DNA of 64,000 bases from Ignavibacteriota bacterium (lineage in GTDB: Bacteria; Bacteroidota; Ignavibacteria; UBA10030; UBA6906). The number at the start of each line of letters is the position of its first letter. Positions within the stretch are counted from its first letter, which is position 1. Positions 18,907 through 36,453 of this stretch are shown here, piece after piece. The notes below the pieces were generated by a model that was given only the letters and a program-made list of their open reading frames with translations, did not search any database and was not told the DNA's origin. Location of the stretch: NCBI GenBank assembly GCA_963801355.1, contig CAWDEM010000004.1, forward strand, positions 1,312,001 to 1,376,000, written 5' to 3'. Made by a program: the position numbers and the translations under genes.

Positions 18907-18940
18907 GCACGCGGGTGTGATGCCTCTGTGTGCCCTGATC

Positions 18941-19528
18941 CTATTTCTTCCGTGTCGTCTTCTTTGCCGGTTTTTTCGCCTTGGGCGGCTTCGCCTCTTT
19001 CGGTGGGGGTGTTTCCTTCTTTGTGACGAGCACCTTCCCGAGTTCTGCCTTCAATTTTTCGTAAGAGGCAAAGCGCTCGGTGAAGGCGATCTTCCCGTCT
19101 GAGCGGAGGACGATGATTCTCGGGAGCTTGACGATTTCGTAACTGGAAATGACGTCCGAATCCCGTCCGTACAGCACGGTATAGGGAAGCTTAAAGCTCT
19201 GTGCGTCGGCCTCCACACGACCGCGCATGTCGATCGGGTTGATCGAAAGAATCGAGACGTTTTTGTATTCACTCCAGATCTTTTTGAGAGGCGGAAACTC
19301 CGCCTGGCATTCCCTTCACTTCGACTTCCAGAAATGAAGAATCACTACGCTCTTGCCCGCGTAACTCTGCAGCGTGACGTTCTTGCCCGTTCCCACTGCC
19401 GGCAGGCTGAAGGCCGGCGCTTTGACGCCCGGTGCCAATCCTTCCCCGGCAAAGAGCATGTGTGCGCAGATCGTGAATACGGTAATGGCAAGTATGGTTG
19501 CTGAGCGTCTCATAGATTCCCGGGTCAT
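18941..19528 (-). CDS. exported TlpA/AhpC-like thioredoxin-fold selenoprotein (U-R-E-C); joins ORFs 19316-19528 and 18941-19228
   Basis: Reading through TGA at 19316-19318 gives ...APAFSLP...VILHFWKSK-U-REC-QAEFPPL...KLPRIIVLRSDGKI with no other stop (195 aa). Signal peptide present; SECIS-like hairpin 10 nt downstream. Confidence 0.92.
19289..19305 (-). promoter_or_regulatory. SECIS-like element for UGA 19316
   Basis: AGGCGG[AGTTT]CCGCCT, loop starting at +17 from the UGA. Confidence 0.8.
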
Positions 19529-21822
19529 TTGAGGAGGACCATGCGTTGTGCAAGCATCGTTGTTCCACTGGAGAAGCGGCAGATATATACCCCGGAGCTC
19601 AGCCCCGATGCATCGAACCGGAACCTGTGGTACCCGGCAGACAGTACCTCGTTCGCCAGAGAGGTGATCTCCCGGCCGAGAGCATCAAAGATTGTCAAAC
19701 GGCATAGTGTTTGTACCGGCACGCCGATCTCAATGGTTGTCGTGGGGTTGAAAGGATTCGGATAGTTCTGACGCATGACAAATGTCTCCGGCAGACCTTC
19801 TGCGCGGTCCCGCACGGCGGCAGAACCCGAGAGGTTCAAGCGGTACACACCGCTTCCCTCCGTGCCCGCGTAGAGACGCCTGTTCGTCCGGTCGTACGCC
19901 AGACATGTCGCCCGCACATTGCCGAGGCCGTTGGAAAAGTTGTTCCAGTTCTTCCCCCTGTCTGTGCTCCGCCACACACCACTTGCTGCCCCGGCATAGT
20001 AGATCCCGCTGCTGTCGGGATTGCAGAGCAGCGTGTATGCGTACATATAGCCGGCCGGCACAGTCCAGCTTGAACCGGCGTCGGTGCTTGTATACACGCC
20101 ATTGTTTGTCGTTGCCGCAAGCACGTTTACATTGAAGGGATCGATGACGATTTTCGTGATTGATTCATACTGCTTGCCGAAGGTACTGCTCCCGATCTGA
20201 TTCCACGTGCTTCCGGCATTGGTTGACTTGTATATCCTGCTGTAGGTTGGCCACGTGCTGCCGGAGGCATACACTCCTCCACCGGCATACATGATATTTG
20301 TATTGCTGGCTTGAATAGCCAGGGTCTGCACCTCACCCCCGGCGGTGTCCAAAGCGATGCGCGTCCAGTGTGTTCCGTCGTCTGTCGATTGGTAGACAGC
20401 CATATGGGATGGCTCGGTCGTGCTTGCGGGATTGAGCTTTCCACTGCCACCCTGGTACAATACTGACCCCAGAGCTACGACATAACCGTTATCCATGGAA
20501 TCGTCGAGAGTTATCCAAGTGGACCCGCCACTTGTGCTCCTGAGGAGCGCCGATGTGCCTCACCCACCGCCTTCAAAGGCGTACAGACGCTCCGGGTTGA
20601 CGGGAGAGATGAAGACGTCTGTGACGTTTTCGCATGAATAGAAATCCGGCAGTCTGCTCCACGTTACCGTGGATTGGGTAGCTCCGCTGGTTTTGAAGAC
20701 TCCGCTGTAATTGATCCCTGCGTACATGATCGTGGGTGACGACGGAGCGCACACAAGAGCGGTGACCATAGTGCCATTCAATCCCGTGCTCGTCTGCCTC
20801 CATGATGCACCGGCATTGGATGATCGGAACACTCCTGTTCTGTTGCCGATGAACACGCACGCAGGGGTCGATCCTTCAACGACCAATGGGTCCACGCCGC
20901 TGCCGACAATGCCGCTACTGGAGGTAGTGTCCCAGGTGGCCCCGCCGTCGGTGCTCTTATAGACGCCATAGCTGTACGTCGAGGCGAACATGACGTCCGT
21001 ATTTGGCAGGTAAAATGCAAGCTTCTCGGGCGCCGGGACGTACACTCCAGTCCACGAACTGCCGCCGTTGCTGCTCCTGTAGATTCCCGCTCCGGAGGCG
21101 ACGAAGATCTTTCCTCCGCCGCCCGGGTCGACAAGGATGTCATTCACCATGCCCGGTAGTGTTCCCGTGATGTCACCGAAGACCGAACCGCCGTCTGTAC
21201 TCTTGAAAATCCGGCCATAGATATACGAACCAATAACAACATATCCCCCTGCATAAACGTGTTGGGTGTTCGTTGGATCAACCGCGACAGCGTATCCGTA
21301 GCCGGTTCCGCTCGCAAGCGTGCGTACGGTCCAGTCCGTTCCGCTGTTCGTCGTCCGAAAGTAGGCAAAGGACGATATGGACCCGTCGTAGAAGTAGCCG
21401 GACAGATGGAATGTGGACGGGCTCGCTGGATCCCGCGCCAGATCCTGCGCATAGCAGTTGGTGGGAAGGTTTATCGAGGTCCACGTCCCTCCGCCGTCGG
21501 TGCTGGAGAAGAGAATGGAGTAGGCAACACCATAGACACGTGATGGATTGGAGGGATCCACTTCGAGCATTTGAGGTGTTGAAGGAATGGTCGCTGTGGC
21601 GAACCAATGTTCGCCGTGATCCGTTGTCTTCCACCCGTTCCCCGGATAACTCTGTGTTGCAGCATATAATATACTGGTGTTTGAACGTGACTGCGCGAGT
21701 GCAGTTATGTATCCTCCTTCAGGGCCGACGGATTCCCATCCGGGGGTCTGTCCCGCCATCTCTGGAGGACCCAGCATGACAGGTATCGTCAGACACACCA
21801 GAAACAGCAAATGAGTTTTCAT
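19525..21822 (-). CDS. secreted BNR/Asp-box beta-propeller with T9SS-type C-terminal tail and in-frame UGA (putative Sec421); joins ORFs 20560-21822 and 19525-20496
   Basis: TGA at 20560-20562 is in frame: YAFEGGG-U-GTSALLRSTSGGSTW (an Asp-box repeat) runs into the downstream ORF. Signal peptide is only in the 5' part, QNYPNPFNP tail only in the 3' part. 765 aa. Confidence 0.8.
20516..20548 (-). promoter_or_regulatory. tandem hairpins, candidate SECIS for UGA 20560
   Basis: GCTCC[TCA]GGAGC followed by a perfect CAAGTGG[CGGGT]CCACTTG (loop at +33). Confidence 0.55.
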
Positions 21823-21862
21823 GCGGACCTCTGCTTGATTGTGCCCACCCGCCTCCGGGTGA

Positions 21863-22651
21863 TCAACCGGGAGCGGAGAGCAAATTGCGGATCATTGTGT
21901 ACATTTCGGTAGTACGTTTGTACAGATTGTCTATACGGTACCGGACTACTCCCTTGCGATCAATAATGATAAAAGTGGGTGGCACATTGCCGAAAGAAAT
22001 GCCAACCCGGTATGCGCCGAACAGTGCGCTGGTTGAGTCATAGACAAGCGGGTACGCTACGCCGCTCTGGGTACGGAATGTGCGGAGCCACGTGACTGAA
22101 GATGTGTTGTTCACCCCCACCACCGCAAGACTCTCACGCGGGAAGCTTATGAAGATTTGCCATTGCACAGACGGCAACTCCGTCTGAATGCAATCCATTC
22201 ACGTATGTTCGAAAAAGACGAGGAGAACGACTTTCCCCCTCTGCTTATGCATTTCGAACAGCGAGTCATCAATGGTCCGCACGGTAAAGTCAGGCGCTTC
22301 GTTGTCGAGGAATGGGCCGATCTTTGTCAGGCGCATGAGCAAAGCCGCCACCTCGTTGCGGCGGACTGTAACCATCGTATCCGAGCGGGCGCCCGAGCTG
22401 TCTGCCACGGTGAGCTTGTGCATCCCGGCGACAACTCCATGCAGGGTGCAGGGATTGGGCAATTTCCCCTGAGGAATGTCGTCCAGGGCGACAGAGATTG
22501 AATCAAACACAAGCGTATCCATCGCCGTAACCGTGAGGGTGCCGGTGAACGGTTCGGGCATCCCCGTGGGTGGATCTCCGCAGCCCTTCACCGCAATGGC
22601 ATACGCTGCCCCGCACAGAATGAGAAGCATGCGATAATGCCTGCGCGTCAT
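21863..22651 (-). CDS. lipoprotein: PEGA-like domain + TlpA/AhpC-like selenoprotein domain (U-M-D-C); joins ORFs 22199-22651 and 21863-22198
   Basis: VKGC lipobox; APDFTV...GKVVLLVFFEHT-U-MDC-IQTELP...VPPTFIIIDRKGVVRY; TGA at 22199-22201; 262 aa. Confidence 0.92.
22162..22194 (-). promoter_or_regulatory. SECIS-like element for UGA 22199
   Basis: ATTGCA-TT-CAGACGG[AGTTG]CCGTCTG-TGCAAT: 7-bp upper stem and 6-bp lower stem, loop at +20. Confidence 0.85.
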
Positions 22652-22663
22652 CTTCTCCCTCTC

Positions 22664-23692
22664 CTAGAATGCATAGACAGCTCCAAGCATGTAGGTGTTC
22701 ATCTGGACACCAAGATTGCTGGCATAGTAACGGTATTTTGTGTAGAGCAGCCAGACAGCGGACATTTCACGGTTCAACTGAACGCTGAATGCCCGTGACC
22801 GCATGTTGTCCGGAATGATGATGCCTTCTTCACCCAGGCTCACATTGTCGCTCTTGTTCTGATATAGACGGAATTTCACCCAGAGGGTCGTCGCCCAGTT
22901 CAGGTACTGAGCGACTTCCAGAGCCGGGGCGAGCGAAGAAATCCCCATGGAGTTCGTGTACCAGCGGAGCGAAAGATGCACGGCGGTCTGGGTCGGCAGG
23001 AACTGGGAAAGCCAGACGCTGACGTTGTGTGAATTGAATGAAAACAGATCTCCATTTGCGTTATAGTACACGTATTCCGCCTGGACCGCCGTGGAAAGTG
23101 TCAGGACCTGGCGCGCCTTGAGGCGGAGATTGATTGTACCCATTTTCCCGCCCACCGGACCGGCGTCGGCACCGCGAAAGTAGAACTGGATATCGCCCTG
23201 CACAGAAGTGAGAGCGCTCATATCCCACAGTGCTCCGGTACCGGCTTGAAAGGCCGCAAAGCCACGGGAGTCATATTGAAACTGCGTTGCTGCGATTCCG
23301 ACGACGGTTGAACTCAAGTTCCGGGTATACTTGATCTCGGCCAGGTGCTGCGCTACGTCTTCCTTGATGTCAGAGTACTGGTACTTCACCCCGAGTTGAG
23401 CTGCTTTGCCGACAAGGCGTGTGTATTTGATGAGTGCCCGCTTCTCGGGGAAGTTCGCGATGTACGGCAAGTTCTGCTGGTAACCGGACACGCCGTAGTT
23501 GTAGATGATCGGCTCGGGGTATTCGTACTCCCCATAATCGGCGTATTGAAGCTCAACTTTGAGCTTGCTCTTCAGCTCAAACGAGTCGTCGTAACCCTGT
23601 GAGTAAAGGGACGAAGACACGAGGGCAAGCGCCGGGAGGATGATGGCGACGTGGTACCTGCAGAGCCTATGAATATGTCTCACCTGAGACAT
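22664..23692 (-). CDS. putative outer-membrane beta-barrel protein
   Basis: Signal-like N-terminus, alternating aromatic/hydrophobic beta pattern (KYQY, QFQY, KYRYY), C-terminal ...GAVYAF; ATG at 23692 after GAGGG. Confidence 0.8.
   Translation of the reverse strand: MSQVRHIHRLCRYHVAIILPALALVSSSLYSQGYDDSFELKSKLKVELQYADYGEYEYPEPIIYNYGVSGYQQNLPYIANFPEKRALIKYTRLVGKAAQLGVKYQYSDIKEDVAQHLAEIKYTRNLSSTVVGIAATQFQYDSRGFAAFQAGTGALWDMSALTSVQGDIQFYFRGADAGPVGGKMGTINLRLKARQVLTLSTAVQAEYVYYNANGDLFSFNSHNVSVWLSQFLPTQTAVHLSLRWYTNSMGISSLAPALEVAQYLNWATTLWVKFRLYQNKSDNVSLGEEGIIIPDNMRSRAFSVQLNREMSAVWLLYTKYRYYASNLGVQMNTYMLGAVYAF
23675..23692 (-). promoter_or_regulatory. SECIS-like element for UGA 23703, overlapping the barrel start codon
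   Basis: Perfect ATGTCTC[AGGT]GAGACAT, loop at +18. Confidence 0.8.
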
Positions 23693-23696
23693 GGCC

Positions 23697-23930
23697 CTAC
23701 CCTCAGGTAGGGCAGGCCGCAGCCTCCCCGACGGCGCCGGTACCGTTCTCGATTTGCGAGATATCTTCGTCATTGTCCTGCAGGTTTTTCATGATCGCGC
23801 AATTGACGCGGCTTTCCATCTGCAGCGACTGACGTGACGATACACAGCTGGTGAGAAACGAGGAAAAAAGGAGGGAAATGACGATGAGAAGAATTGGACT
23901 GATGGTGTGTGATTCCCTGCCGCGAGCCAT
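23697..23930 (-). CDS. small lipoprotein selenoprotein ending C-P-T-U-G-stop
   Basis: GGGGAG RBS, hydrophobic signal with LTSC lipobox; ...GCC TGC CCT ACC TGA GGG TAG; SECIS-like hairpin downstream; 77 aa. Confidence 0.82.
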
Positions 23931-23980
23931 AACCACTCCCCTTAGGACCAGGATATGACGGGGGACTCCATCTGGGGGAA

Positions 23981-24009
23981 AAGTTAGGGGAACGAAAGAT
24001 CAATGTCAA
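23981..24009 (-). promoter_or_regulatory. sigma-70 promoter of the selenoprotein operon
   Basis: TTGACA-17 bp-TAACTT on the minus strand, about 50 nt before the lipoprotein start. Confidence 0.65.
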
Positions 24010-24011
24010 CA

Positions 24012-24072
24012 GATTTGGCGAATTTGGGAGGAATTTGGGAGAAATTTTGGGAAGAAATCGGGAGAAACGGGG
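24012..24072. repeat. degenerate ~10-bp repeats (AATTTGGGAG-like)
   Basis: gatttggcg aatttgggag gaatttgggag aaattttgggaag aaatcgggag aaacggg. Confidence 0.55.
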
Positions 24073-24102
24073 GGGAGCACGTCTTCACGATGCGACAGTT
24101 GT

Positions 24103-24159
24103 TTGACTGTGGGCATGTCCTTCACTATCATAGCATAGACTGATCTACCATAGACTGAT
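24103..24159 (+). promoter_or_regulatory. sigma-70 promoter followed by an 11-bp direct repeat
   Basis: TTGACT-17 bp-TATCAT; CATAGACTGAT at 24134 and 24149. Confidence 0.55.
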
Positions 24160-24230
24160 TTGCCTGAGATTGCCCCTGAATTCCAGTCCAGTCCAGTCTC
24201 CTTCTTCCCGGATTACAGACGTGGTGCCAC

Positions 24231-26384
24231 GTGAACACTCTGAATTCCCTCGGTTGCGCGCTCTTTGCGCTCTTCCTCACGGCGGAAACCGGTCTCAGTC
24301 AGTGGGTTCAGGTTGGACCGTCAGGCTTCCTTTCCTGTCTCCTAAAGACCCCCGCAGGGCTCTTTGTCGGCTCCGCGGGCGCCGGCATCTACTTTTCCTC
24401 TGACAATGGCATCTCATGGCGAGGCGCAAATCTTGGGCTCACAAGCCAAAATGTTACCGGCATGACCAATATCGGACAGGATGTCTTTGCCTCGACACGC
24501 GGGGGAGGTGTGCTGCTCACTACAGACAACGGTGCTACTTGGGCTCCAGTCAACTCGATGCTGATCAGTCAGGATGTTGGATGTGTGACAGCTATCGGCA
24601 CTGGAGTCCTGGCAGGACCAACCGGATATGGAGCGTTCTTCTCTCCGGATCGCGGAACGACCTGGCAGCCCTTCGGCAAAGGACTCGCCATGGAAACTGT
24701 GAACGCCTTCTTTTCGAAGGATTCCAGGATTTTTGCGGGGACTATGCAGGGTGTGTACGCAACGTCAGACGGTGGAAAGAATTGGTTTTCCTCAAATGCC
24801 GGTCTCCCCGCCAACGGCCGGGTGACCGCATTCGCGTCGACTGACACACTGATCTTTGCAGGCGTCCACAATGGAGGGGTCTACATCTCTACAGACAACG
24901 GCGTTTCGTGGTCAACTGCCGGCACGGGACTTACCGACAGCAATGTGACGTGCCTGGCGAGCGTTGTTCTCCCCGGGTCGACGGCGCGGAGACTCCTGGC
25001 GGGCACGGCAAGAAGAGGATTGTTTGCATCCACTGATAACGGCGCAAATTGGGCTCCAGTGGATCTCGGACTGTCGAGTCTTCAAGTGGATGCGCTCGCA
25101 TCCGACGGCTCAGTTGTCTATGCGGCGCTGGAGGAAGGAGTGAGAGTCTCGAGTGATGCGGGCCTTCACTGGGGAGACGCCGGAGCGGGTGCGCCTACAA
25201 GAACGGTGATGGGTCTCGGACTCTTCGGAACGAATCTGTATGTCGGCACTAACCGCACTGGTGTCTATGTCACGGCCGACATGGGCAATACCTGGGCTCC
25301 TGCAAACCAGGGCCTGACGGGTTACGACATTTCGGCCATGACTGTTGCGGGTACTACTCTCTTCGTGGGGACGTCCGGGGGAAGACTCTTCCGTCGTGAG
25401 ATGTCTGATTCCAACTGGTTTGCGGCGAGCTCCCAGTTCGCAAATCTGCCCTTCAATGTGCTCGGCGCCGCGGGCAATGTCCTACTTGCCAATCCAGGCT
25501 TTCGTGGAATTCATTATTCCACAGACATTGGCGCCAACTGGCTTTACGGTCAGGGATCGGAAGCCGACCAGAACGGGACATCCTTTCTCTCCTTCGCGGT
25601 GGGCCAGGGTTACATTTTTGCAGGGTCATTGAACTTCGGAGCCTTCCGCTCTGCCGACAATGCTGTCAGCTGGCAACGCAAGAACAACGGCCTGGGCAAT
25701 TTCACCGTGCGCGCGCTCGCCCTGGATGGTTCGCTCCTCTTTGCCGGAACCTCGGCCGGCCTCTTTGTGTCGAGCAACAACGGCGAAACCTGGCAAAGCG
25801 GCAGCACGATGCTGGCCGGCTCGCTGGTGAGGGGCCTCGCGGTCTCCGGCAACACGATCATCGCCAGCACCGGAGACCAGGGCATATGTGTGTCGACAGA
25901 TCATGGCATAACCTGGCAACAGGCCAACCAGGGATTGTCCGGCGCGGCCACAACTCTCGTGTCCTGCGATGGTTTGCTCGTCTATGCTGGTTCGACTCTG
26001 GGTGGGCTTTATCGCCGCTCACTTTCCGAGATGCTCTCTTCTCTTAGTGGCCTCCCGGCGTTGCGAGAGCTCCCGACCGATTTCCTGCTTTGCCAGAACT
26101 ACCCCAACCCGTTCAATCCAACGACCACGATCCGTTATGGCTTACCCAATCGTTCGCAAGTCGCTCTGATAGTCTTCAACACGCTCGGTCAACGAGTGGC
26201 ACAGCTGGTTGATGGCGAGAAGGATGCAGGGTATCACGAAGTGCAGTTTGACGCATCAGGACTCTCATCAGGCGTGTACCTGTATCGGATGCAGGTCCGC
26301 CCTATGGACTCCGCCATCGGGCGGGACTCCAAGAGCGGACCTGGGAGCTATGTGGACGCGAGGAAGCTGGTCTTGTTACGCTGA
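24231..26384 (+). CDS. secreted BNR-repeat beta-propeller protein with T9SS-type C-terminal sorting domain
   Basis: Signal peptide, more than ten S/TxDxGxxW repeats, QNYPNPFNPTT...RKLVLLR. Confidence 0.9.
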   Translation: MNTLNSLGCALFALFLTAETGLSQWVQVGPSGFLSCLLKTPAGLFVGSAGAGIYFSSDNGISWRGANLGLTSQNVTGMTNIGQDVFASTRGGGVLLTTDNGATWAPVNSMLISQDVGCVTAIGTGVLAGPTGYGAFFSPDRGTTWQPFGKGLAMETVNAFFSKDSRIFAGTMQGVYATSDGGKNWFSSNAGLPANGRVTAFASTDTLIFAGVHNGGVYISTDNGVSWSTAGTGLTDSNVTCLASVVLPGSTARRLLAGTARRGLFASTDNGANWAPVDLGLSSLQVDALASDGSVVYAALEEGVRVSSDAGLHWGDAGAGAPTRTVMGLGLFGTNLYVGTNRTGVYVTADMGNTWAPANQGLTGYDISAMTVAGTTLFVGTSGGRLFRREMSDSNWFAASSQFANLPFNVLGAAGNVLLANPGFRGIHYSTDIGANWLYGQGSEADQNGTSFLSFAVGQGYIFAGSLNFGAFRSADNAVSWQRKNNGLGNFTVRALALDGSLLFAGTSAGLFVSSNNGETWQSGSTMLAGSLVRGLAVSGNTIIASTGDQGICVSTDHGITWQQANQGLSGAATTLVSCDGLLVYAGSTLGGLYRRSLSEMLSSLSGLPALRELPTDFLLCQNYPNPFNPTTTIRYGLPNRSQVALIVFNTLGQRVAQLVDGEKDAGYHEVQFDASGLSSGVYLYRMQVRPMDSAIGRDSKSGPGSYVDARKLVLLR
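26295..26340. repeat. in-frame ~45-bp palindromic insertion in secretion tail (copy 1)
   Basis: GTCCGC..TGGA..CGCC ATCG GGCG..TCCA..GCGGAC; near-identical copy at 28389-28433. Confidence 0.7.
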
Positions 26385-26657
26385 CCTTGGCGCACAATGA
26401 TTCATGGCCCGGCATTGTCGGGCCCGTCCACTTTGTCTCCATCCAGTGAACCGCTTCGAACGGTGGAGTATATTGCGCGCGGAATCACTTGCGAGGAAGA
26501 CGCAATTCTCCGTCAGGCTCCCCGTCACCCAACGGCACGGAATACCGCGAATACGGTATTGAAATGCCCAGCAATTAAACCGTATATTTCCAGGAATGCC
26601 GCACCAGAACAACACACAGGCAGGCCAAACCCAATTCATCAACTGGAGGATACTGTC

Positions 26658-28478
26658 ATGATGCTCATGCGTCTAGTCGCGGTGCTTATCGCATGCGTGC
26701 TGTTGTGGGCGGTCTCTGCGCCGGCGCAGTCTCTTGAGGAGCTGCAAAACGACGAGATCAACGTGGCGACACGTCCATCCAATGATGTCCAGCAGCTGGC
26801 AAAGGAATTGTCGCAAGCCCGAAAAGCCGGTGATTACACCCGTGCAAGGGAGCTGGAGCGCATACTCTTCACCGCCATGCCCACTCTTCCCGCGGATGCC
26901 GCGCCGCTGATCTACGGGGGCAGCTACGACATGCCGGAAAACACGGCGGGTCCTCTCTGGGGCAACGACGTGAAGATCTACACCGGCCCCGTATGGTCAA
27001 ACGGCAAACGCCAGCTTGCCATCGATGCAGATACCCTCAAAGGCATCTATATCGGTATCAATGCAAAATACCAAGACACGCTCTCTCAAATCCTCGTTTA
27101 TCGTTCGACGAACGAGGGAAAGAACTGGACCTTCTTGACCAGATTCTATTCGACCGGTCAGGCATTCCAGTCGTTCGATATGTGCGTCACCGATACGGCT
27201 GGTGGTAAGTGGCTACTGGGATTCTCGCTTGTTCTCAAGACTGACAAGAGCGCAGCCGGCGGCGGTCATCTCTATTGGGGGAGCGTACTGAGCGACGGCT
27301 CGGATTGGCGGTACAAACTCATTGCCCCTGCGAGCCCTTCCACCAACTTCAGGAACCCAAGCATCTGCACGGATGGCACATACTACCCTCCCGGGACGAC
27401 CTATCACTACGTTGCCGCGGAATTTGTAAACCCTGCGACGGATGTGCCGCGTGGCCTGTTTGTCACCCGCACGACGGACTGGGGGAAGAACTGGGTCACC
27501 CCCGATAGTTCCATCAAAAACGTCCAGGAATCGACGCCCGTCATCGCCATCGACTGGAGCACGACCCCGGACAGTCTGTGCCTTGCGTTTACCCGGTTTA
27601 CAACTCCGAGTCGCGAAATCCGCGCTGCCCGCAATTCGATCACATTCTCCGGTGGATGGACAATCACCTATTTGGTGACCAAGACGGATGACTATGATCC
27701 TTCCATGGCAATTGACCCGATCCGGGGCAATGCTATCATCACCTATACTCGTGCCACGGGCGCACCGACGTACAACGATATTCTGTACCTCTACACTACA
27801 GATCTCTTCAAAACATTCAGCCGGGACAGCATCGCCGCAAGCACGGCAGTTGAGGAACTCAGCTCGGTGAGCTATGCGCCGTGGAAGACCGGTTACTATT
27901 GGAGGGTGGCATATCGCTCATCTCTCGGCACTGACACCATTTACTACAAAGCGGTCATGGACAAGCTTACGGGATTCTACACAACCAAGCCTACTGATGT
28001 GAGCCAGTATCAACCTTCGACACTTATCGCGCCGGTCGTTGGATTCGATAGAGACATCGGAGGAACAGATTACCGCGGCAATTGCGCTTACGTCGGCTAC
28101 GGGCCTCAAAATGTATATTTCGATGCGGTCGACATGGTGCTGGATGTCCCCATCGAGGAAGGCGTTCCTGCAGCATATGCACTTCACCAGAACTACCCCA
28201 ACCCGTTCAACCCGACGACGACCATCAAGTACGAGTTGCCCAAGTTGTCGGAAGTGACTTTGGGTGTGTATGACATGCTCGGTCGTGAGGTATCGGTGCT
28301 GGTGAATGACAGGAGGGATGCGGGAGTTCATGAAGCGAAGTTTGACGGAGCAGGGCTGTCAAGCGGGATGTATTTCTATCGGATGCAGGTCCGCCCTCTG
28401 GAATCCGCCATCGGGCGTGACTCCAAGAGCGGAGCAGGAAACTTCATTCAGACGCGCAAGCTGCTATTGTTGAGATGA
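26658..28478 (+). CDS. secreted protein with Asp-box repeats and T9SS-type C-terminal sorting domain
   Basis: GGAGG RBS, signal peptide, RSTNEGKNW and RTTDWGKNW, QNYPNPFNPTT...RKLLLLR. Confidence 0.9.
   Translation: MMLMRLVAVLIACVLLWAVSAPAQSLEELQNDEINVATRPSNDVQQLAKELSQARKAGDYTRARELERILFTAMPTLPADAAPLIYGGSYDMPENTAGPLWGNDVKIYTGPVWSNGKRQLAIDADTLKGIYIGINAKYQDTLSQILVYRSTNEGKNWTFLTRFYSTGQAFQSFDMCVTDTAGGKWLLGFSLVLKTDKSAAGGGHLYWGSVLSDGSDWRYKLIAPASPSTNFRNPSICTDGTYYPPGTTYHYVAAEFVNPATDVPRGLFVTRTTDWGKNWVTPDSSIKNVQESTPVIAIDWSTTPDSLCLAFTRFTTPSREIRAARNSITFSGGWTITYLVTKTDDYDPSMAIDPIRGNAIITYTRATGAPTYNDILYLYTTDLFKTFSRDSIAASTAVEELSSVSYAPWKTGYYWRVAYRSSLGTDTIYYKAVMDKLTGFYTTKPTDVSQYQPSTLIAPVVGFDRDIGGTDYRGNCAYVGYGPQNVYFDAVDMVLDVPIEEGVPAAYALHQNYPNPFNPTTTIKYELPKLSEVTLGVYDMLGREVSVLVNDRRDAGVHEAKFDGAGLSSGMYFYRMQVRPLESAIGRDSKSGAGNFIQTRKLLLLR
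28389..28433. repeat. in-frame ~45-bp palindromic insertion in secretion tail (copy 2)
   Basis: GTCCGCCCTCTGGAATCCGCCATCGGGCGTGACTCCAAGAGCGGA. Confidence 0.7.
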
Positions 28479-28495
28479 GCTATAGCCAGTAATTG

Positions 28496-28539
28496 AACAA
28501 AAATAGCCCGGGCAGAGATGTCCGGGCCTTTGTTTGTTT
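28496..28539. terminator. bidirectional intrinsic terminator between convergent genes
   Basis: A-rich tract, GCCCGGGCA-GAGA-TGTCCGGGC, then CTTTGTTTGTTT. Confidence 0.7.
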
Positions 28540-28666
28540 CGAGAGGAACATCGTCCACCGTCCTTTCGAGTGTCGGACGGTGAAAGTGAGCGCACACTAA
28601 ATCGCACACTCCGAGTGCAATTTCCTGTGCAGCGCGTGAGGTGGGCAAGAACAAAAGCGGTGAAAA

Positions 28667-28765
28667 TGGCGGGGACGGGTGGGGATCGAACCCACCTCCC
28701 GGGCTTTTCAGTCCGGGACAACGGATTTGAAGTCCGCGGGGACCACCAGGTTCCCTTTCATCCCC
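28667..28765 (-). tRNA. selC: tRNA-Sec (anticodon UCA)
   Basis: 99 nt; GCGGA-CTTCAAA-TCCGT anticodon arm, TGGT D-loop, long variable arm with GAAA loop, GTGGG-TTCGATC-CCCAC, G73 and encoded CCA; directly after selD. Confidence 0.96.
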
Positions 28766-28825
28766 GATCACAACGGCCCAATTTCGCGATTCCCCCGGAG
28801 AATTCCAAGACCCTCCAGGTCACGA

Positions 28826-29914
28826 CTATCCCTCCAGTTTCAAGAAGACTGGCCTTCCTTCCGGTGATTGCATCAAGGGAATGACCTCTCCCACTTGACG
28901 CGCCGCAGTATCTCCAGCCTCGTGCAATGCATGTACTACTTCATGGACGCGATCTGACGGGACCGCCGCAAGGAGTCCGCCGGATGTCTGCGGATCGGTC
29001 ATCAACCTGAACTGGGCCCCGGATACCGCATCCGAGCGCATTGTGTGGGGTTCGACGTACTGATCCGATGTGATCTTGTGAGCTGATGGCGATACATCCA
29101 TGAGCGCAAAAGTTGATTCAAAACAAGGCAGGAGCGAGGCGTGGAAGACCAGAGTCACGCCGGCGTTCCGGGCGATGGGCAACGCGTGACCGAGCAATCC
29201 GAATCCCGTAACGTCCGTCATCGCGCTGACCTCGAACTTCTCGAGGACCCCGGAGGCGTACATATTCAGACGCTGCATGCTTGTGGCAAACTCTTCATAT
29301 TGTGCGATGGTCAGGCGATCTTTCGAAAGTGCCTCGGCATAGATGCTCGTGCCAAGCGATTTTGTGAGAATCAGCGCGTCACCGGCACGCGCGTGTGCGT
29401 TGGTCACAACCCGGTCAGGATGGATCGTGCCGGTCACGCTCATGCCGTAGAAAATCTGCTCCTGTTCCATAGAGTGGCCGCCCATGAGGACGACGTGGGC
29501 TTCCTGGAGTTTTTCCGCTGCGCCGGTGAGAAGCTTCGCTATGACTTCGGTGGGTATCAGCTTTGCGGGATACGCCAGGATATTCATCGCCGTCAGTGGC
29601 CGTCCGCCCATGGCCCACACATCGGAAAGACTGTTGGCAGCGACGATGCGCCCGAAAGTCCGCGCGTCGTTCACCACCGGTTGAAAGAAATCCAGTGTTT
29701 GCACCAGCGCCAGTTCCGGCGTGAGACGGTATACACCCGCGTCGTCCATGGTATCCATGTCGACCAGGATATCCGGTGACGATATCCGGGGAAGGCGGGA
29801 AAGAATCCCTGCCAACCTGGCAGGGGAGATTTTGCCCGCTCACCCAGCGCAGGCGGCGTAGGAGAGCAGTCGTATCTCCTTGCCACCCGGCATGTAGGGA
29901 GCCGTTTCTATCAT
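28826..29914 (-). CDS. selD: selenophosphate synthetase, Sec-containing (C-A-G-U-A-G-K); start 29914 or 29893
   Basis: IRLLSYAACAG-U-AGKISP with TGA at 29840-29842; DDAGVY, TLDFF, ANSLSDVWAMGG, DVTGFGLLGH, DPQTSGGLL. Confidence 0.96.
29807..29825 (-). promoter_or_regulatory. SECIS element of selD
   Basis: CCCTGCC[AGGTT]GGCAGGG, loop at +22, with AATC/GATT lower stem. Confidence 0.88.
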
Positions 29915-30732
29915 GGCGGACATCCAATCCTATTATTGAGGGGATGTACAGCGAACGTGTTGTCCTTCCACTCCTCTGCAAGCAGTGCAGCGCCGAGTGC
30001 GCCGGTGAATTCCGGATCATCGGGGACCAGAATCGTCCGCCCGGTAACCGATTGAAGCGCGGCCACCACTCCCGGATTGCGGGCAACGCCGCCGGTGAAG
30101 ATCACCTGGTCTTCCCATCCAAGCCGGCCAGCCATGCCGATCACACGGCGCGCGACGGACTGAAACACGCCATTGAGGATGGAGGAGGCGGAGATACCCT
30201 GATGGAGCAATCCCACGATCTCGGTCTCGGCGAATACCGCGCACATCGAAGTGATCTCGCAAATTGCCGTGGTGGAAAGAGCGAGCCGGCCGGTATCCTC
30301 CACCGGCACCGAGAGCGTTCGTGCGACGGTCTCCAGAAATCGCCCGGTCCCCGCGGCACAGCGGTCGTTCATCGCGAACTCCAGCACCGAGGCCCGGGCA
30401 TCCAGCCGCATCATCTTGGAATCCTGGCCGCCGATATCAATTACCGTGCGAGCATCCGGAAAGCATGCGTGTACACCGGTCGCGTGACACCGGATTTCGG
30501 AATATGTTCCATCGGCGGCGGTGAAGTAGTGCCGGCCGAGACCCGTGGCAATGGTGCACTGCACGTCCTGCCGCTGAATGCCGTGGGTCTCCAGAACGCG
30601 CTGGTACAGCAATCCGGCATTCTCTCCGGGCGACGGACCGGATGGACACATCCCCCGGCCAAGCATCACGCCGTCTTCCAGAAGCACCACCTCGATTGAG
30701 GTTGAGCCGATGTCAATGCCCGATGTCAACAT
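29911..30732 (-). CDS. ASKHA-fold [4Fe-4S] ATP-dependent activase (HgdC/BadF/DCCP-R type)
   Basis: GIDIGSTS, ATGLGR, IDIGGQDSK, MNDRCAAGTGRFLE, SMCAVFAETE, FTGGVARN. Confidence 0.92.
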   Translation of the reverse strand: MLTSGIDIGSTSIEVVLLEDGVMLGRGMCPSGPSPGENAGLLYQRVLETHGIQRQDVQCTIATGLGRHYFTAADGTYSEIRCHATGVHACFPDARTVIDIGGQDSKMMRLDARASVLEFAMNDRCAAGTGRFLETVARTLSVPVEDTGRLALSTTAICEITSMCAVFAETEIVGLLHQGISASSILNGVFQSVARRVIGMAGRLGWEDQVIFTGGVARNPGVVAALQSVTGRTILVPDDPEFTGALGAALLAEEWKDNTFAVHPLNNRIGCPP

Positions 30733-32008
30733 GAGTCTTGCTGTGCTCGTGGAGCACCTCGCTAAACGATTCCAGGCGCACGGAGAGTCTGTCCAGATCC
30801 TCGTACGAATAGTCTGTCACAATGGTAAGCGAAGGCACAGATCGTTTGCCGAGTTCCCTGTCAAGCGCCCGCGCCTCAATATTGTATGCATGACAAAATG
30901 AGAGAATGTGATGCACTACGCCTTCAATGTGGTACATGTCGAGAATCTGCCGGATGTTGTCCACACGCTCGCTGTTGGGCGAAAAGCACGCACAGTCAAT
31001 GGCGAAGTACCTGTCGGCAATCGCATCCAGCAGGCCGTCTATGTCACGAGGAGATTCATCGACCGGGTCCCGGAAGTACCGCATACCCGTGCATGTTTCG
31101 TCGGCAACGATTCGCATGCCGTGCTGTTCCACCGCGAAATGGACTTTTGCATAGCCGAGGGGTGACGGAGATCCGGCCACAAGAATCCGCGGGCCACGGT
31201 GCGGGTAGGCCGGGACTTCTCGCTGGACGCGGTCGTTGAGCTCATCCAGGAGTTCCTGTGCAATACGGATGAAGGCGGTCGGGTCCATCGCGAGGGCTGC
31301 CTGAGAGACCAGCAGGGCATCCAGTCCGGACAGGGGAGGCTCTTCGTTTTTCCGGAGTGCGTTGATGTCCTGAAGGACCCTCCTGCGTTTATTCACAAGT
31401 GCAACTGACTCCCGGAGGGTTTCACAGGTAATCGTCGTGCCACTCAGTTGTTCAATGAATTGCCGGAACTCGCGCACTTCAGAGCGCCAGAGCTCTTTGT
31501 CCAGAGGATTCTTTTTCTGGGGCACTTCGAGGACACGAAAGCCGAGGAGATCCCAGGCCTTCTTCTTAGCATCGCAAGTTGTTTCACCGACTACGGCATC
31601 CTTGAGGTTCTTGTAGGGACAGGTTCCGCTGAATGCCATGCCAAACGTTGACCGGATCAGCGGGCAGATATCCCGCGGGAACATTTTGTCCGCGTAGTCC
31701 ACCGGCCAGTTGCTGCCGCCGCAGAGGGGTATGGGGATGACACCTGCCGCAAAGGCGATTTCGTCCGGCACATAGATGCAAAAAGTTCCGATGGATTTGC
31801 TGCCCGCGCTTCTCTGCGCGGCGATTTCCGCTACGCGTGCGCCATGGCTGGCGTAAAACGCCTCGTCGAACAATGCCATGGCAGACGGCCGCCGCTCCGC
31901 AGCACCAAACGTTCGCTTGTGCAGCGCGGAGTTGTAGGCCTCCAGACGGTCATGCAGCTCGAGATTGACACCCACAGATGCCAGCAAGCTTCGCAATTCC
32001 TGTCCCAT
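30713..32008 (-). CDS. 2-hydroxyacyl-CoA dehydratase superfamily protein, single-chain double-cubane-cluster reductase type
   Basis: GTFCIYVPDE, LCGG, PRDICPLIRS, CPY, GETTCDAKKK, ETCTG, IDCACFSPN, FCH; adjacent activase; TGATG overlap with selB. Confidence 0.85.
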   Translation of the reverse strand: MGQELRSLLASVGVNLELHDRLEAYNSALHKRTFGAAERRPSAMALFDEAFYASHGARVAEIAAQRSAGSKSIGTFCIYVPDEIAFAAGVIPIPLCGGSNWPVDYADKMFPRDICPLIRSTFGMAFSGTCPYKNLKDAVVGETTCDAKKKAWDLLGFRVLEVPQKKNPLDKELWRSEVREFRQFIEQLSGTTITCETLRESVALVNKRRRVLQDINALRKNEEPPLSGLDALLVSQAALAMDPTAFIRIAQELLDELNDRVQREVPAYPHRGPRILVAGSPSPLGYAKVHFAVEQHGMRIVADETCTGMRYFRDPVDESPRDIDGLLDAIADRYFAIDCACFSPNSERVDNIRQILDMYHIEGVVHHILSFCHAYNIEARALDRELGKRSVPSLTIVTDYSYEDLDRLSVRLESFSEVLHEHSKTHVDIGH

Positions 32009-33906
32009 CAAAGTCCCTTCAGCACGCGCACATCTTCGTGCCGCTCGGTGAACCCATTCCTGTCCAGGTATTCCAGCAGGGGAACTACATACTTGCGTGT
32101 CATTGCCAGATGCTGCCGGAGCTCACTGGTTGTGCCCTTGCCATGGATGCGCAGGTACTCGCCCAGACGTTTTTGTGCCTCTGTGATGCCGTTCCTGTGC
32201 ATCAACAGGCCCTCTTCGAGGTGAATCAGATCCCCGCATTCCGTGATGTGTGTGACCAACTTCTCGGCGCCCTTCCCCAGTTCGGCCACAATTTCCCCGG
32301 TATCAGGTGGTGTCAGCAGATTCGTGAGGTACTTCTGCAGAATCATGTCCCTGAGTCTTTTCTGGTCGGCGGAGAGGGATACGGTGTGCCCTTCACAAGC
32401 GAGCTGCTCTCCATGTTTGACGATACGTGATTCTTTCAGGAGTTCGTCTACGATGATTGCGAGGAGCCGCTTGTCAATGGCCGGTTTGATGCGAGAAGCC
32501 AATTCGGGGGCGGGGACACCCACGCGGAGAGGGTTCTCCTGATGAAAACGCGTCAGCGCATCCAGCACGTGCGTGCGGAGGGTCAGCTTGTTGCTGAGGG
32601 CAAACCACGTCTTGCCTTCGAGGCAGAGCACGCAACGGCGCTCCTCGAGGACGTGGAGATACTGCAGGCATGTCTCCAGAGGGATCGCTGCTGTCCTAGC
32701 AAGCTCAGCTGCGGTTACAGGTGCAACGGCAAATCGCTGGAGTTGCTGCAACACATGTTCTGCTGGGTCGCCTTTGACCGCCTGCTGCAGGCGTTCAAGC
32801 ACATCGCCCTGGAATCTCCGGTGTTTTCCGGGCCTGACGTCCAGGACCGTCCCGCCTCCAAGAGTTTGAAGAGGCGAATAACTCCTGAGGACATACCGGT
32901 CTCCATCGTCGGCCACGATGGGCCGCTCAAAGTGGAGCTGGACAAAACCCTCCTTCCCGGGCTTCAGCTCTTCCTGGTCGAGAAGGAGGACCCGTGCGAT
33001 GACTTCCGTAGTCCCCAAATGGATGCGGACGCGCGTGCGGTGCTGCAACGGCCCCGGTGCAGTGGCGAGGTAGAGAAGATGAGCATCCACCATGGACGTC
33101 GGGTGGTAGTATCCCGGGGTCCCAAGCACGTCGCCGCGTTCCACAACTTCACGTTCCAGCCCTTGCAGATTGACTGCCGTGCGAAGCCCAATGCTGCTTT
33201 CCTGGACGGTCTGATCGTGGACCTGGATTCCCCGAACGCGAAGAGGTCTGCCGATGGGGAGGAGTTCAACCGTGTCATCCACGCGGATACTGCCCGAAGC
33301 GATCGTTCCCGCGACTACCGTCCCGAAGCCCTTGATGGAGAAGACTCTGTCGATGGGCATCCGGAAGACCCCTTTGTCGGTCCGCTGGCGGACCAACCCG
33401 GCTTCCCGGAGGATGGCGCGGTGCAGCTCGTCTATGCCCTCTCCGGTCACGGCGCTCACCCTGTACAGAGGAGCTCCGCCGAGGAAAGTACCCTTCACCA
33501 GCTGCGCAATATCGGCGCTGACCAGGTCCAGCCACTCCGGTGCCACAATGTCCACCTTGTTCAGCGCTATCAGCCCGCGGGGAATCTTCAGGAGACGGAG
33601 GATTTCCAGATGCTCCCGGGTTTGAGGCATGACGCCGTCATCCGCCGCAACGACAAGAAGGGCAAAATCCACCCCGGTCACACCGGCCACCATGGTTTTG
33701 ACGAACCGCTCGTGTCCCGGGACGTCGATGATGGCCACCGAGTCTCCCAGGAATGCGAACCCGAGGTCGGTGGTCATCCCGCGTTCCTTCTCCTCTTTCA
33801 GGCGGTCCGTATCGATGCCGGTGAGCCTTTTGACAATTGCAGTCTTTCCGTGGTCGATATGTCCCGCCATGCCCATGACTACATGTCGTGTGTGAGGGCT
33901 ACCCAT
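32008..33906 (-). CDS. selB: selenocysteine-specific elongation factor
   Basis: [30 protein letters not shown]-terminal winged helix [13 protein letters not shown]. Confidence 0.97.
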
Positions 33907-35305
33907 GGTGCACGACTTCCTGAAATGCCTTGGCAACGAGCTGCACGTCATCGTCGGCAATCGTTCTGCAGTCGAGCAGAAGTGATTGATCCCGTATGCG
34001 TCCGATGACCGGAGTGCTTGACAGGCGGAGCTCACGGGCAAGGCCGTCGGGCGACAGGCCCTCGATGGTGCACGCGACTACTGATGTCGGGAGGGTGGCT
34101 GCGGCGAGCGATCCGCTGCCTACTTCGGCGGTATCTTGTTCCACAGAACATTTCCCGCGGCTCCCAAGAATCGGGGTGAGGAGATCAAGCAGGTGCACAG
34201 CGCGGGCTTTCACGGTATCCTGTGACGCGGTGAGGGAACGGAACACAGGGTGCTCCCGCGCCAGACTGCCTTCATCAAGAAACAGACGGAGTGTCGCCTC
34301 CAGCACTGCAAATGTCATCTTGTCACATCGCAACACCCTGATGAGCTGGTTGCTTTTGAGACGGTCTACAAGTGCACGCTTACCGAGGATGATGCCGCAC
34401 TGGGGCCCGCCAAGAAGCTTGTCGCCACTGAAGCACACGAGGTCGGCCCCGCCGGCAATCGACTCCTGAACCATCGGTTCATGAGGCAGACCCCAGCGGC
34501 GGAGGTCAAGAAGGGCGCCACTGCCGAGGTCGTCGATGGCGATGAGGTTGTGCTGGTGTGCGAGCTCGGACAATTCGTGTATCGAAACCTGGCTGGTGAA
34601 GCCGACGATATGATAGTTGCTCTGGTGAACTTTCAGTATCACTGCGGTTTCGGGGGAGACGGCGGCCCGGTAGTCTTTAAGATGGGTACGATTCGTTGTG
34701 CCCACCTCAACAAGTCGTCCGCCGCTGCGTCGGAGGACATCAGGTATGCGGAAAGAGCCTCCGATCTCCACCAGCTCACCGCGTGACACAATGACTTCAC
34801 GCCCCTCCGCAAACGTGTTCAGTACCAGAAGTGTGGCCGCTGCGTTGTTATTTACGACAACGGCCGCTTCTGCTCCGGTGATCTTCCGGAGCAGATGCTC
34901 GACACTCCGGTAGCGGTCGCCGCGTTTGCCGGTGTCGAGATCCAGTTGCAGAGTGCAGTAGCTGCGGACTGCATCTGTCAGGGCGCGCTGCGCGCTGCGT
35001 GCCAGCGGGGCGCGCCCGAGGGCTGTATGAAGAATTACGCCGGTCGCATTGACGGCCTGCCGGACTCCCGGCAGGAGATTGCGTTGAGCCCGGTCCATGA
35101 TCTCGCCCAGGATCGCATCGTAGGAACCTACTGTTTGCAGGTGTCCGTCGCGGATGCGCTCGCGAAGACTCTCGAGGTATGTGCGGATTTCATCTGCCAC
35201 AAGTTCACGCGGATAGTGTTCCAGCAGAGGAGCCAGTCGCCCATCCTCGAGGAGGAGATCAACCTTGGGCAGCTGTTGAAACAGATCGTTCCGGGCCTCG
35301 CTCAT
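33899..35305 (-). CDS. selA: L-seryl-tRNA(Sec) selenium transferase
   Basis: NATGVILHTALGRAP, VNNNAAA, SRGELVEIGGSFRIP, EVGTTNRT, DLGSG, FSGDKLLGGPQ. Confidence 0.97.
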   Translation of the reverse strand: MSEARNDLFQQLPKVDLLLEDGRLAPLLEHYPRELVADEIRTYLESLRERIRDGHLQTVGSYDAILGEIMDRAQRNLLPGVRQAVNATGVILHTALGRAPLARSAQRALTDAVRSYCTLQLDLDTGKRGDRYRSVEHLLRKITGAEAAVVVNNNAAATLLVLNTFAEGREVIVSRGELVEIGGSFRIPDVLRRSGGRLVEVGTTNRTHLKDYRAAVSPETAVILKVHQSNYHIVGFTSQVSIHELSELAHQHNLIAIDDLGSGALLDLRRWGLPHEPMVQESIAGGADLVCFSGDKLLGGPQCGIILGKRALVDRLKSNQLIRVLRCDKMTFAVLEATLRLFLDEGSLAREHPVFRSLTASQDTVKARAVHLLDLLTPILGSRGKCSVEQDTAEVGSGSLAAATLPTSVVACTIEGLSPDGLARELRLSSTPVIGRIRDQSLLLDCRTIADDDVQLVAKAFQEVVHHG

Positions 35306-36197
35306 GAGAAATGCCCCAGGTGACGGAGACATGTTTGCACACCGTACACTTCAAGCAACGGATACAGTCGGGCGAATTCGGATCATCCGAAATTTTGATG
35401 TCCACCGGGCAGACCTTCACGCAGAGATCGCAGTCCGCGCATTTGCCTTCGACATGCATGCGCATAAGACTGACACGATTGAAGTAGGCATAGATTGCGC
35501 CCAGCGGGCAGAGTGCGCGGCAGAAAGGTCGTTTGATCAGGATGAACAAGACGAGGAAGATGCCGAGAATAGACAACTTCAGGACATAGAGCCATCCCAC
35601 CATATCGGGTTCGATCACCGGGGCTCCCAATGCAGGATCGACAGGGTTCCAGAGCATCCAGGGAATCCCGGCGATGAGTGTCCCCCAGGGGCAGATGCGG
35701 GAGAACCAGTGGTCCTCTGTGAGCAGGGGGAGGAGAATTGCGAGGACGGCGAGCGAAAGAAACTTGCCGGATTTGAAGAATCGGGGCAGGCGTAACTTCA
35801 CACTCGGGATCTTGTGGATGGTGTCCTGAAGCCAGCCGAAGGGACAGAGCCATCCACACGCCGCGCGTCCGAACAACATGCCAATTGAACCGAGCATGCC
35901 GAGCAGGAAGAACGGCACTTGCCTGATTGCGACAAACGACTGCAGGATACCGATGGGGCAGGCCATGAAGGCTGACGGACAGGCGTGACAATTCAGAAAG
36001 GGCACACACCCCTGTTTGAGGGGGCCCGCATAGATCTGCTTGGTGAACGCGACGGGGTAGTAACCGTTGGAGAGGATGAGGCCGATGCCCACAACAATGA
36101 AGAGCCGGATCTTACGGAGTCTGGAGTAGAGCGGCCTGCTCTCTCTGGTTGTTGCGGGATGTTCCGGGATCAACTGATCCCGATGCAGTCCAGTCAT
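35259..36197 (-). CDS. membrane-bound 4Fe-4S protein (NapH/RdxA-like); start ATG 36197 or TTG 36173
   Basis: CVPFLNCHACP..CPIG, GRAACGWLCPFG, FCRALCPLG, CADCDLCVKVCP, CIRCLKC..C; several TM helices. Confidence 0.88.
   Translation of the reverse strand: MTGLHRDQLIPEHPATTRESRPLYSRLRKIRLFIVVGIGLILSNGYYPVAFTKQIYAGPLKQGCVPFLNCHACPSAFMACPIGILQSFVAIRQVPFFLLGMLGSIGMLFGRAACGWLCPFGWLQDTIHKIPSVKLRLPRFFKSGKFLSLAVLAILLPLLTEDHWFSRICPWGTLIAGIPWMLWNPVDPALGAPVIEPDMVGWLYVLKLSILGIFLVLFILIKRPFCRALCPLGAIYAYFNRVSLMRMHVEGKCADCDLCVKVCPVDIKISDDPNSPDCIRCLKCTVCKHVSVTWGISHERGPERSVSTAAQG
36165..36182 (-). promoter_or_regulatory. SECIS-like element for UGA 36194
   Basis: Perfect CGGGATC[AGTT]GATCCCG, loop at +19. Confidence 0.85.
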
Positions 36198-36328
36198 AGC
36201 GTGGCGCTTTCGATGCGGATCAACGTCAAGTCTCCGCCCACGATTCCCAGCGCCAGCAACGTGATGAAGAGCAGCATCAGGACGATGCGCACTCCCCAGT
36301 GCACGAGCAAAAGGCCGGCCATCTTCAT
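36170..36328 (-). CDS. 52-aa single-TM selenoprotein ending U-L-D-C-I-G-I-S (CD1871A-like CxxC family, Sec form)
   Basis: ...GCC ACG CTA TGA CTG GAC TGC ATC GGG ATC AGT TGA. LxLxCIGI tail upstream of a membrane 4Fe-4S gene; SECIS-like hairpin present. Confidence 0.85.
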
Positions 36329-36453
36329 GGCGATCTCGCTCTGTGTGGAGGAAAAGTACGAAACGGCAAATACACACGCAAGTTGCATCTTGTTGCGGCC
36401 TTCCGCACTTTATTATAGAGAACAGACCCTTTCACATGGGCGGGCCAATTTCG

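Follow-up and report, generated by a model that had tools for sequence, protein, structure and literature searches.

A double-cubane cluster protein encoded between selB and selD in an Ignavibacteriota bacterium, and a probable selenocysteine-containing sister branch of its family

Double-cubane cluster proteins (DCCPs) are best described from Carboxydothermus hydrogenoformans (6ENO, 7YYL, 7YZM), whose enzyme couples ATP to the reduction of an [8Fe-9S] cluster and turns over small molecules (PMC7317905, PMC9351452); in this class-I form the N-terminal helices close the coenzyme A (CoA) funnel (PMC7317905), and papers from 2022 and 2025 still call the natural substrate unknown (PMC9351452, PMC11971306). 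A link to selenium is already published, as the study by Haft and Gwadz (10.1101/2022.07.06.499078) places 955 of 970 DCCPs in assemblies with SelD and proposes either the processing of a selenium compound or a selenium-bridged cluster. Mlp clusters with DCCP may hold selABD (PMC10418091), and a Slackia selenium cluster contains an HgdD-type subunit with an activase (PMC5322559). The stretch of DNA considered here, called the window, comprises 64,000 nt of an Ignavibacteriota bacterium (GCA_963801355.1, contig CAWDEM010000004.1; feature coordinates are window positions, L-numbers denote the loci and G-numbers the genomes compared), and it encodes a DCCP reductase and its activase inside an operon for the synthesis and use of selenocysteine (Sec). 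This operon context extends the published association, and a sister branch of the same family very probably carries Sec in place of a conserved cysteine.

On the minus strand the genes run in the order U-x-x-C peptide, Fer4_5 membrane protein, selA, selB, reductase, activase, selD and tRNA-Sec, and they are tightly joined: selB overlaps the selA stop by 8 nt, the selB stop and the reductase start share TGATG (a 1-nt overlap at 32008), the reductase and activase genes have 20 nt in common (30713-30732), and the activase stop and the selD start share ATGA (a 4-nt overlap, 29911-29914). The original prediction, made from the letters alone, had set a double-cubane-type reductase with an ASKHA activase between selB and selD on the strength of the last three junctions, and all three were re-read as it described them. 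SelD is itself a selenoprotein: its codon 25 is a TGA with a hairpin behind it, and 10 related loci have a TGA at the equivalent column. A search of the whole genome found a single DCCP and a single set of selA, selB, selD and tRNA-Sec.

The reductase is a member of the DCCP family and not a dehydratase subunit. It scores 390.5 bits against NF040772, above the curated cut-off of 350, among solved structures it comes closest to the Carboxydothermus DCCP chains (6ENO, E 2.6e-105, alignment from residue 4), and its predicted fold matches the Carboxydothermus enzyme with a TM score of 0.86, the two sequences being 40% identical along their whole length. Each of the seven cysteines of the family motif (C77, C96, C115, C145, C306, C339 and C372) aligns with a cysteine of 6ENO; their spacing, 18-18-29-160-32-32, escapes a regular expression built from the printed motif because the first gap is 18, a value shared with 6ENO, while 160 residues rather than 166-170 make up the long gap. 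A further cysteine, C341, the ninth, lies outside the motif, is invariant across 15 aligned proteins and is present in 6ENO. E142, K148, R310 and Y375 match residues that we take to be those of the active site in the Carboxydothermus enzyme. In the predicted model, four helices at 3-11, 16-32, 44-52 and 55-67 make up the N-terminal extension of class I. The activase, encoded next to the reductase as in Carboxydothermus, passes its own family cut-off (TIGR00241, Table 1) and retains both phosphate-binding motifs and two [4Fe-4S] cysteines (C125, C164); it stands closer by score to HadI (205.9 bits) than to DCCP-R (157.4). HadBC with HadI and the class I benzoyl-CoA reductase BzdNO share the fold (TM 0.62-0.70) and the activase class, and BzdN also holds an [8Fe-9S] cluster, but those proteins are heterodimers acting on CoA esters, at 14-23% identity and with scores far under the family cut-offs (HadC 105.4 of 700, BzdN 98.9 of 453.8). 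A dehydratase or benzoyl-CoA reductase subunit is therefore rejected, and is further disfavoured by a missing partner, no second homologue having been found in the genome; the family assignment of the original prediction is thus upheld.

The arrangement recurs elsewhere. The order selB-DCCP-activase, followed by selD where the contig reaches that far, is found in 7 of 48 genome loci, with titles naming Ignavibacteriota or Bacteroidota, and selB-DCCP-activase again in one of 80 long metagenome loci (L099), while one further metagenome locus (L134, partial) ends its contig on selA-selB-DCCP; the linkage is thus not peculiar to this genome. These recurrences are not independent: all that were placed in trees group with the window's gene in a single clade. 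Other branches of the tree (L026, L040, L031, L037, L038, L049, L054) have sel genes in the neighbourhood of DCCP as well. In total, a sel gene lies within 7 kb of DCCP in 14 of 48 genome loci, and sel genes are nearby in 13 of the 80 long metagenome loci. Of 68 genomes in the family to which the window belongs, the 4 that have a DCCP are also the 4 with selA, and the two genes are adjacent on one contig in all four; these genomes may overlap with the operon loci counted separately. Where a clade member stands away from sel genes, 14 of the 15 tested genomes keep both selD and selA (one selA partial), and the remaining one, a 2.1-Mb assembly, has neither. Across 301 genomes of the class, selA is present in 3, selD in 58 and a DCCP over the cut-off only in the window's genome, with one sub-threshold match in another; a requirement of DCCP for Sec synthesis is rejected, as class genomes with selA or selD but no DCCP exist.

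In the window the operon belongs to a 17.4-kb block between a major facilitator superfamily (MFS) gene and uvrB. Three of four genomes from the same genus (G002, G003, G004) lack the block and have these two flanking genes no more than a few hundred bases apart (neither gene was matched in the fourth), which is why the block is read as an island. Its G+C content (0.572) is close to that of the flanks (0.585 and 0.589). Such coupling to selB and selD on an island distinguishes the pair from its Carboxydothermus counterpart. One alternative makes the pair a passenger, or else an enzyme of CoA esters (a dehydratase or reductase) unconnected with selenium. Such a reading would suit the one clade formed by the operon loci, the many DCCP loci (most of them) that are not near sel genes, and the HadI-leaning score of the activase; it is nevertheless improbable, given that no partner alpha subunit was found in the genome, that the N-terminal extension is present, that linkage to sel genes appears on several branches of the tree, and that a likely Sec occupies column 130 in sister genes.

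Residue 130 lies outside the seven-cysteine motif and is a cysteine in 118 of 119 full-length homologues, the Carboxydothermus enzyme having one at the same column. In sister orthologues the codon is TGA: this is so, with no other internal stop, in 4 of 48 genome loci, in 3 of 119 metagenome loci (one of which duplicates L019), where the pattern used admitted only TGA, TGC or TGT at that column, and in 3 of 16 matches from the phylum of G061, one of them new. Seven distinct TGA130 genes are available as DNA (L019, identical to L107; L020; L025; L032; L140; L160; L189), for comparison with Haft's selenoprotein criterion of at least ten examples, and the six that were compared share 58-72% DNA identity. 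A 6-bp stem resembling a selenocysteine insertion sequence (SECIS) begins 21 bases past the UGA; it is perfect in 6 of 6 TGA genes, has the same letters in L189, uses four synonymous positions, and occurs in 0 of 12 Cys genes that encode the D-F-A/S-x-G-E peptide, a contrast between TGA and Cys genes that relatedness inflates. All four genomes tested among those with Sec130 genes possess selA, selD and tRNA-Sec, and the four read-through products that were scanned score 391-415 bits against NF040772, all above the cut-off. A search with residues 1-129 for shorter homologues returned 57 proteins, of which 48 stop exactly before column 130; these 48 clusters show 45-94% mutual identity, and the TGA was read in DNA for 5 of them. 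On the sequence evidence, a sister branch very probably codes for Sec at residue 130 and would represent a selenoprotein form of DCCP.

This form appears to be uncatalogued, and it appears to be the new part of this work. Literature searches, which left subscription journals mostly uncovered, did not find a DCCP selenoprotein; none is present in Table 1 (119 selenoprotein families) of a 2026 catalogue that does list SelD, YeeE/YedE, rhodaneses and the one-domain relative DUF523 (PMC13188914), and a word search of PMC12013277 and its four supplements gave no match. The study by Haft and Gwadz concerns the same family, NF040772, and draws the same inference about selenium, but it does so from genome co-occurrence and adjacency to SAO, and its accessible part contains neither a DCCP selenoprotein nor a selB-DCCP-activase-selD operon. 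In the tree, the Sec rows and the window's clade fall within one 17-row clade (98/96). Sec130 as the ancestral state of the window's gene is not shown, the Sec rows being scattered and a single clade of them not being rejected (p-AU of 0.094 in the approximately unbiased test), and the window's own DCCP gene is not counted as a selenoprotein gene, its codon 130 being TGT in an open frame. The additional TGA codons flagged in L193 and L202 are no more than normal stops at the C-terminus. Several features of the Sec130 loci deserve a record of their own. Directly upstream of the Sec130 DCCP of L020 lies a YedE putative selenium transporter (L020:8713-9924; 349.6 bits, cut-off 200); near the Sec130 genes of L019 and L025 are fusions of two HGD-D units of about 867 aa (L019:14438-17041, L025:4483-7083), the former scoring 524.5 bits against NF040772, together with a third HGD-D gene in each of the two loci. 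In G061 and G063 both selA and tRNA-Sec are present twice, and selD three times in the former and twice in the latter, through duplication or mixed bins.

The location in a sel operon on an island, taken together with a likely Sec at a conserved cysteine in the sisters, makes it likely that the enzyme handles selenium itself, and a selenium role of some kind for the pair, as the original prediction had it, can be held with good confidence from the operon, the co-distribution and Sec130. Such a role could also be that of a consumer, in which SelD feeds a selenium-bridged [8Fe-8S-Se] cluster or the Sec130 of the sisters, the real substrate is free of selenium, and the operon packages the enzyme with its machinery. 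The co-occurrence reported by Haft and Gwadz amounts to a one-way dependence of that kind, the same asymmetry is seen across the 301 class genomes, the sel gene closest to DCCP is often selD (L037, L049, L054, L083, L089, L094), and the Sec130 forms require the Sec machinery found in all their tested genomes. However, the Carboxydothermus enzyme produced in E. coli is active with a sulfide bridge (PMC7317905, PMC9351452), and Sec130 is absent from every member of the 51-row clade to which the operon genes belong, so Sec translation does not explain the place of DCCP in the operon. Consumption is for these reasons held to be unlikely.

The best reading, to which a probability of roughly 40% is given, is reductive cleavage of a carbon-selenium bond that supplies selenide to SelD. 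As suggested by the conserved motifs, the activase would hydrolyse ATP and drive a low-potential electron into the [8Fe-9S] cluster. The N-terminal helices would shut the CoA funnel, for which reason a small substrate is predicted; by analogy with methylthio-alkane reductase this may be methylselenol, dimethylselenide, selenocyanate or a similar compound, methylated selenium species being plausibly those that need ATP-energised electrons. The freed selenium would come to rest either on the unique irons or on a cysteine, for which the candidate carrier is residue 130 (a Cys in the window's protein and likely a Sec in the sisters), and SelD, SelA and SelB would then serve the selenoproteins of the island. 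The related proteins HadC and TudS are described as binding a chalcogen on a unique iron. The analogy with methylthio-alkane reductase MarBHDK (PMC13474568) is one of function model, namely the ATP-driven, low-potential release of a chalcogen from small organic molecules; MarBHDK differs in its nitrogenase fold, its P-loop ATPase and its demonstrated sulfur substrates, is not homologous, and does not count the window's pair among its members. According to PMC10418091, MarHDK-like genes go with mlp clusters that lack selenium genes, and DCCP is found in many mlp clusters; this distribution may be read as a swap of roles. The fuller proposition, that class-I DCCPs do for selenium what methylthio-alkane reductase does for sulfur, acting as ATP-driven C-Se lyases and using an eighth cysteine, so far overlooked, to salvage methylated selenium for SelD, and that the widespread sister branch with Sec at that position is an uncatalogued family cut at residue 129 in databases, is rather doubtful as a joint claim.

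Genes for handling selenium or sulfur neighbour DCCP at other loci: YedE (L020, L065), rhodanese (L025), YedF/TusA (L049, L065, L077, L089, L128, L142), a DUF3343 carrier with a class-V aminotransferase (L049, L065, L142), and a corrinoid methyltransferase set (L038). The last lies between DCCP and selA-selB (L038:11955-18620) and comprises an S-adenosylmethionine methyltransferase, a corrinoid protein and two URO-D-like methyltransferases, the same stretch holding two more HGD-D genes and a second activase. Type 1 mlp clusters (PMC10418091) and the Slackia cluster (PMC5322559) likewise unite a DCCP or HgdD-type gene and an activase with selABD and selenium-trafficking genes, whereas the window's island has no corrinoid methyltransferases, YedE, YedF, DUF3343 or Sec lyase and carries envelope selenoproteins as cargo.

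Several observations weigh against C-Se cleavage for SelD. Gene order alone fits both the supply of selenide and the consumption of selenium. YedE, YedF, DUF3343 and Sec lyase are all lacking in the window's operon. When the count is confined to loci that extend 4 kb or more to each side, a sel gene lies within 7 kb in only 8 of 29 from genomes and 5 of 25 from metagenomes; selABD are absent within the Sec130 loci that have long flanks (L019, L020, L025); and among the class genomes, 2 others with selA and 57 others with selD are without a DCCP over the cut-off. The segment that holds Cys130, residues 96-143, is modelled with a pLDDT confidence below 50, too low to place that residue relative to the cluster. 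Finally, in 6 loci DCCP is accompanied by envelope selenoprotein genes, and since these genes travel with DCCP, partner and machinery are confounded.

The last point gives weight to a reading in which the pair forms the cytoplasmic end of an envelope system, made up of a likely Sec lipoprotein, its 342-aa neighbour, two TlpA-like Sec proteins, a secreted Sec propeller and the membrane polyferredoxin, and reduces a metal, a metalloid or an organic compound after its import, in the manner suggested for the SAO system. At least one envelope gene stands beside DCCP in L018, L021, L026, L034, L040 and L099, the DCCP pair sits among envelope genes in L026 and L040, and DCCPs flank SAO cassettes in 21 of 52 species according to Haft and Gwadz. 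Across L015-L181, however, many of which are short, only six loci have the module beyond a shared tail of the type IX secretion system (T9SS), loci of WOR-3 and others tie DCCP to sel genes with no envelope module, and the genes joined to the pair in the window's clade are selB and selD, not envelope genes, so the probability of such a system is judged to be low, no higher than that of consumption. No sao genes, corrinoid protein or Mlp methyltransferases were found among the scanned island proteins, the rest of the genome not having been searched for them.

A last reading is the reduction of oxidised inorganic selenium (selenite, elemental selenium or perselenides) to selenide for SelD. Reducing inorganic selenium needs no ATP-energised electrons. 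The adjacency of the pair to selD is compatible with it, as is a gene like the beta subunit of ferredoxin-thioredoxin reductase that lies between selD and the DCCP pair in three loci (L038:9678-9986, L094:7309-7617, L074:9298-9645), and Fe-S clusters are able to take up selenium from selenite. Glutathione or other thiols and thioredoxin systems are, on the other side, already proposed to deliver selenium to SelD, the in vivo donor being unresolved (PMC13188914), and an oxidised inorganic source is for that reason the weaker half of the interpretation given in the original prediction, of which the selenium role stands; as a reading of its own it is improbable.

Table 1. Positions of the sel/DCCP operon genes and of the island in the window.
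Feature	Position	Strand	Description
DCCP reductase gene	30713..32008	-	431 aa, PF06050, long class-I type with N-terminal helical extension
DCCP codon 130 (TGT, Cys)	31619..31621	-	in T-C-P-Y motif, outside the seven-cysteine motif; TGA in sister orthologues
ASKHA-fold ATP-dependent activase	29911..30732	-	273 aa, PF01869; TIGR00241 231.3 bits, cut-off 125.4
selD, selenophosphate synthetase	28826..29914	-	362 aa; Sec at codon 25 (TGA 29842-29840), hairpin 29825-29807
selC, tRNA-Sec, anticodon TCA	28667..28765	-	ARAGORN; Rfam RF01852 67.9 bits
selB, Sec-specific elongation factor	32008..33906	-	TIGR00475 360 bits, cut-off 242
selA, Sec synthase	33899..35332	-	TIGR00474 584.6 bits; alternative ATG at 35305
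NapH/MauN-like membrane polyferredoxin (Fer4_5)	35259..36197	-	overlaps selA start; same place in related operons
52-aa hydrophobic peptide, first operon gene	36170..36328	-	likely Sec in U-x-x-C (TGA 36196-36194), hairpin
Island between MFS gene and uvrB	18907..36342		17.4 kb; sel/DCCP operon and other cargo

The remaining parts of the operon and island can be described briefly. The small U-x-x-C peptide has a TGA at the equivalent column in L017, L018, L021 and L034, and Pfam and NCBIfam scans of it gave no match. In the polyferredoxin frame the first ATG shares bases with the TGA that would encode Sec in this peptide (ATGA, 36194-36197), an overlap that could tie translation of the polyferredoxin to the supply of selenium if that ATG is the true start. 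A promoter scan returned 0 sites against 2.7 expected, and terminator-like matches within genes were uninformative, one of them being the selD SECIS. Beyond the operon, the island carries four likely selenoprotein genes, a 342-aa protein with no family match and two T9SS-tailed proteins. Two TlpA/ResA-like genes on the minus strand (18944-19510 and 21863-22651) each have an in-frame TGA in a U-x-x-C motif (19318-19316 and 22201-22199) followed by a hairpin and probably encode selenoproteins. A T9SS-tailed beta-propeller protein (19525-21822, minus strand) has an in-frame TGA at 20562-20560 and homologues in L018, L021, L026 and L040. A small lipoprotein-like gene (23697-23930, minus strand) ends on C-x-x-U-G and is followed by the gene of the 342-aa protein (22664-23692, minus strand), for which the NCBIfam scan gave no match; both recur in L021 and L099. 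Outside the island, on contig C8 of G000, a thioredoxin-TPR protein with U-x-x-C and a hairpin is a likely selenoprotein (L182:2249-3829, plus strand), and a short open reading frame (L183:1659-1958, minus strand) has a candidate C-U motif and no NCBIfam match. Three other TGA candidates from the genome-wide survey were dropped, the family scan having given no match, and two more were inspected at the level of sequence.

The selenium link of DCCP has rested on co-occurrence, and both the compact island and the likely Sec130 sharpen it. The island joins the pair to selB and selD, so that all of these genes come and go as one. At least 48 database clusters appear to be cut at codon 130 and need re-annotation. 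Sec usually marks a chemically active position in a protein, and residue 130 is therefore a direct target for mutagenesis in the crystallised Carboxydothermus enzyme. The branch with its likely Sec130 thus offers a residue-level handle on the function of the DCCP family.

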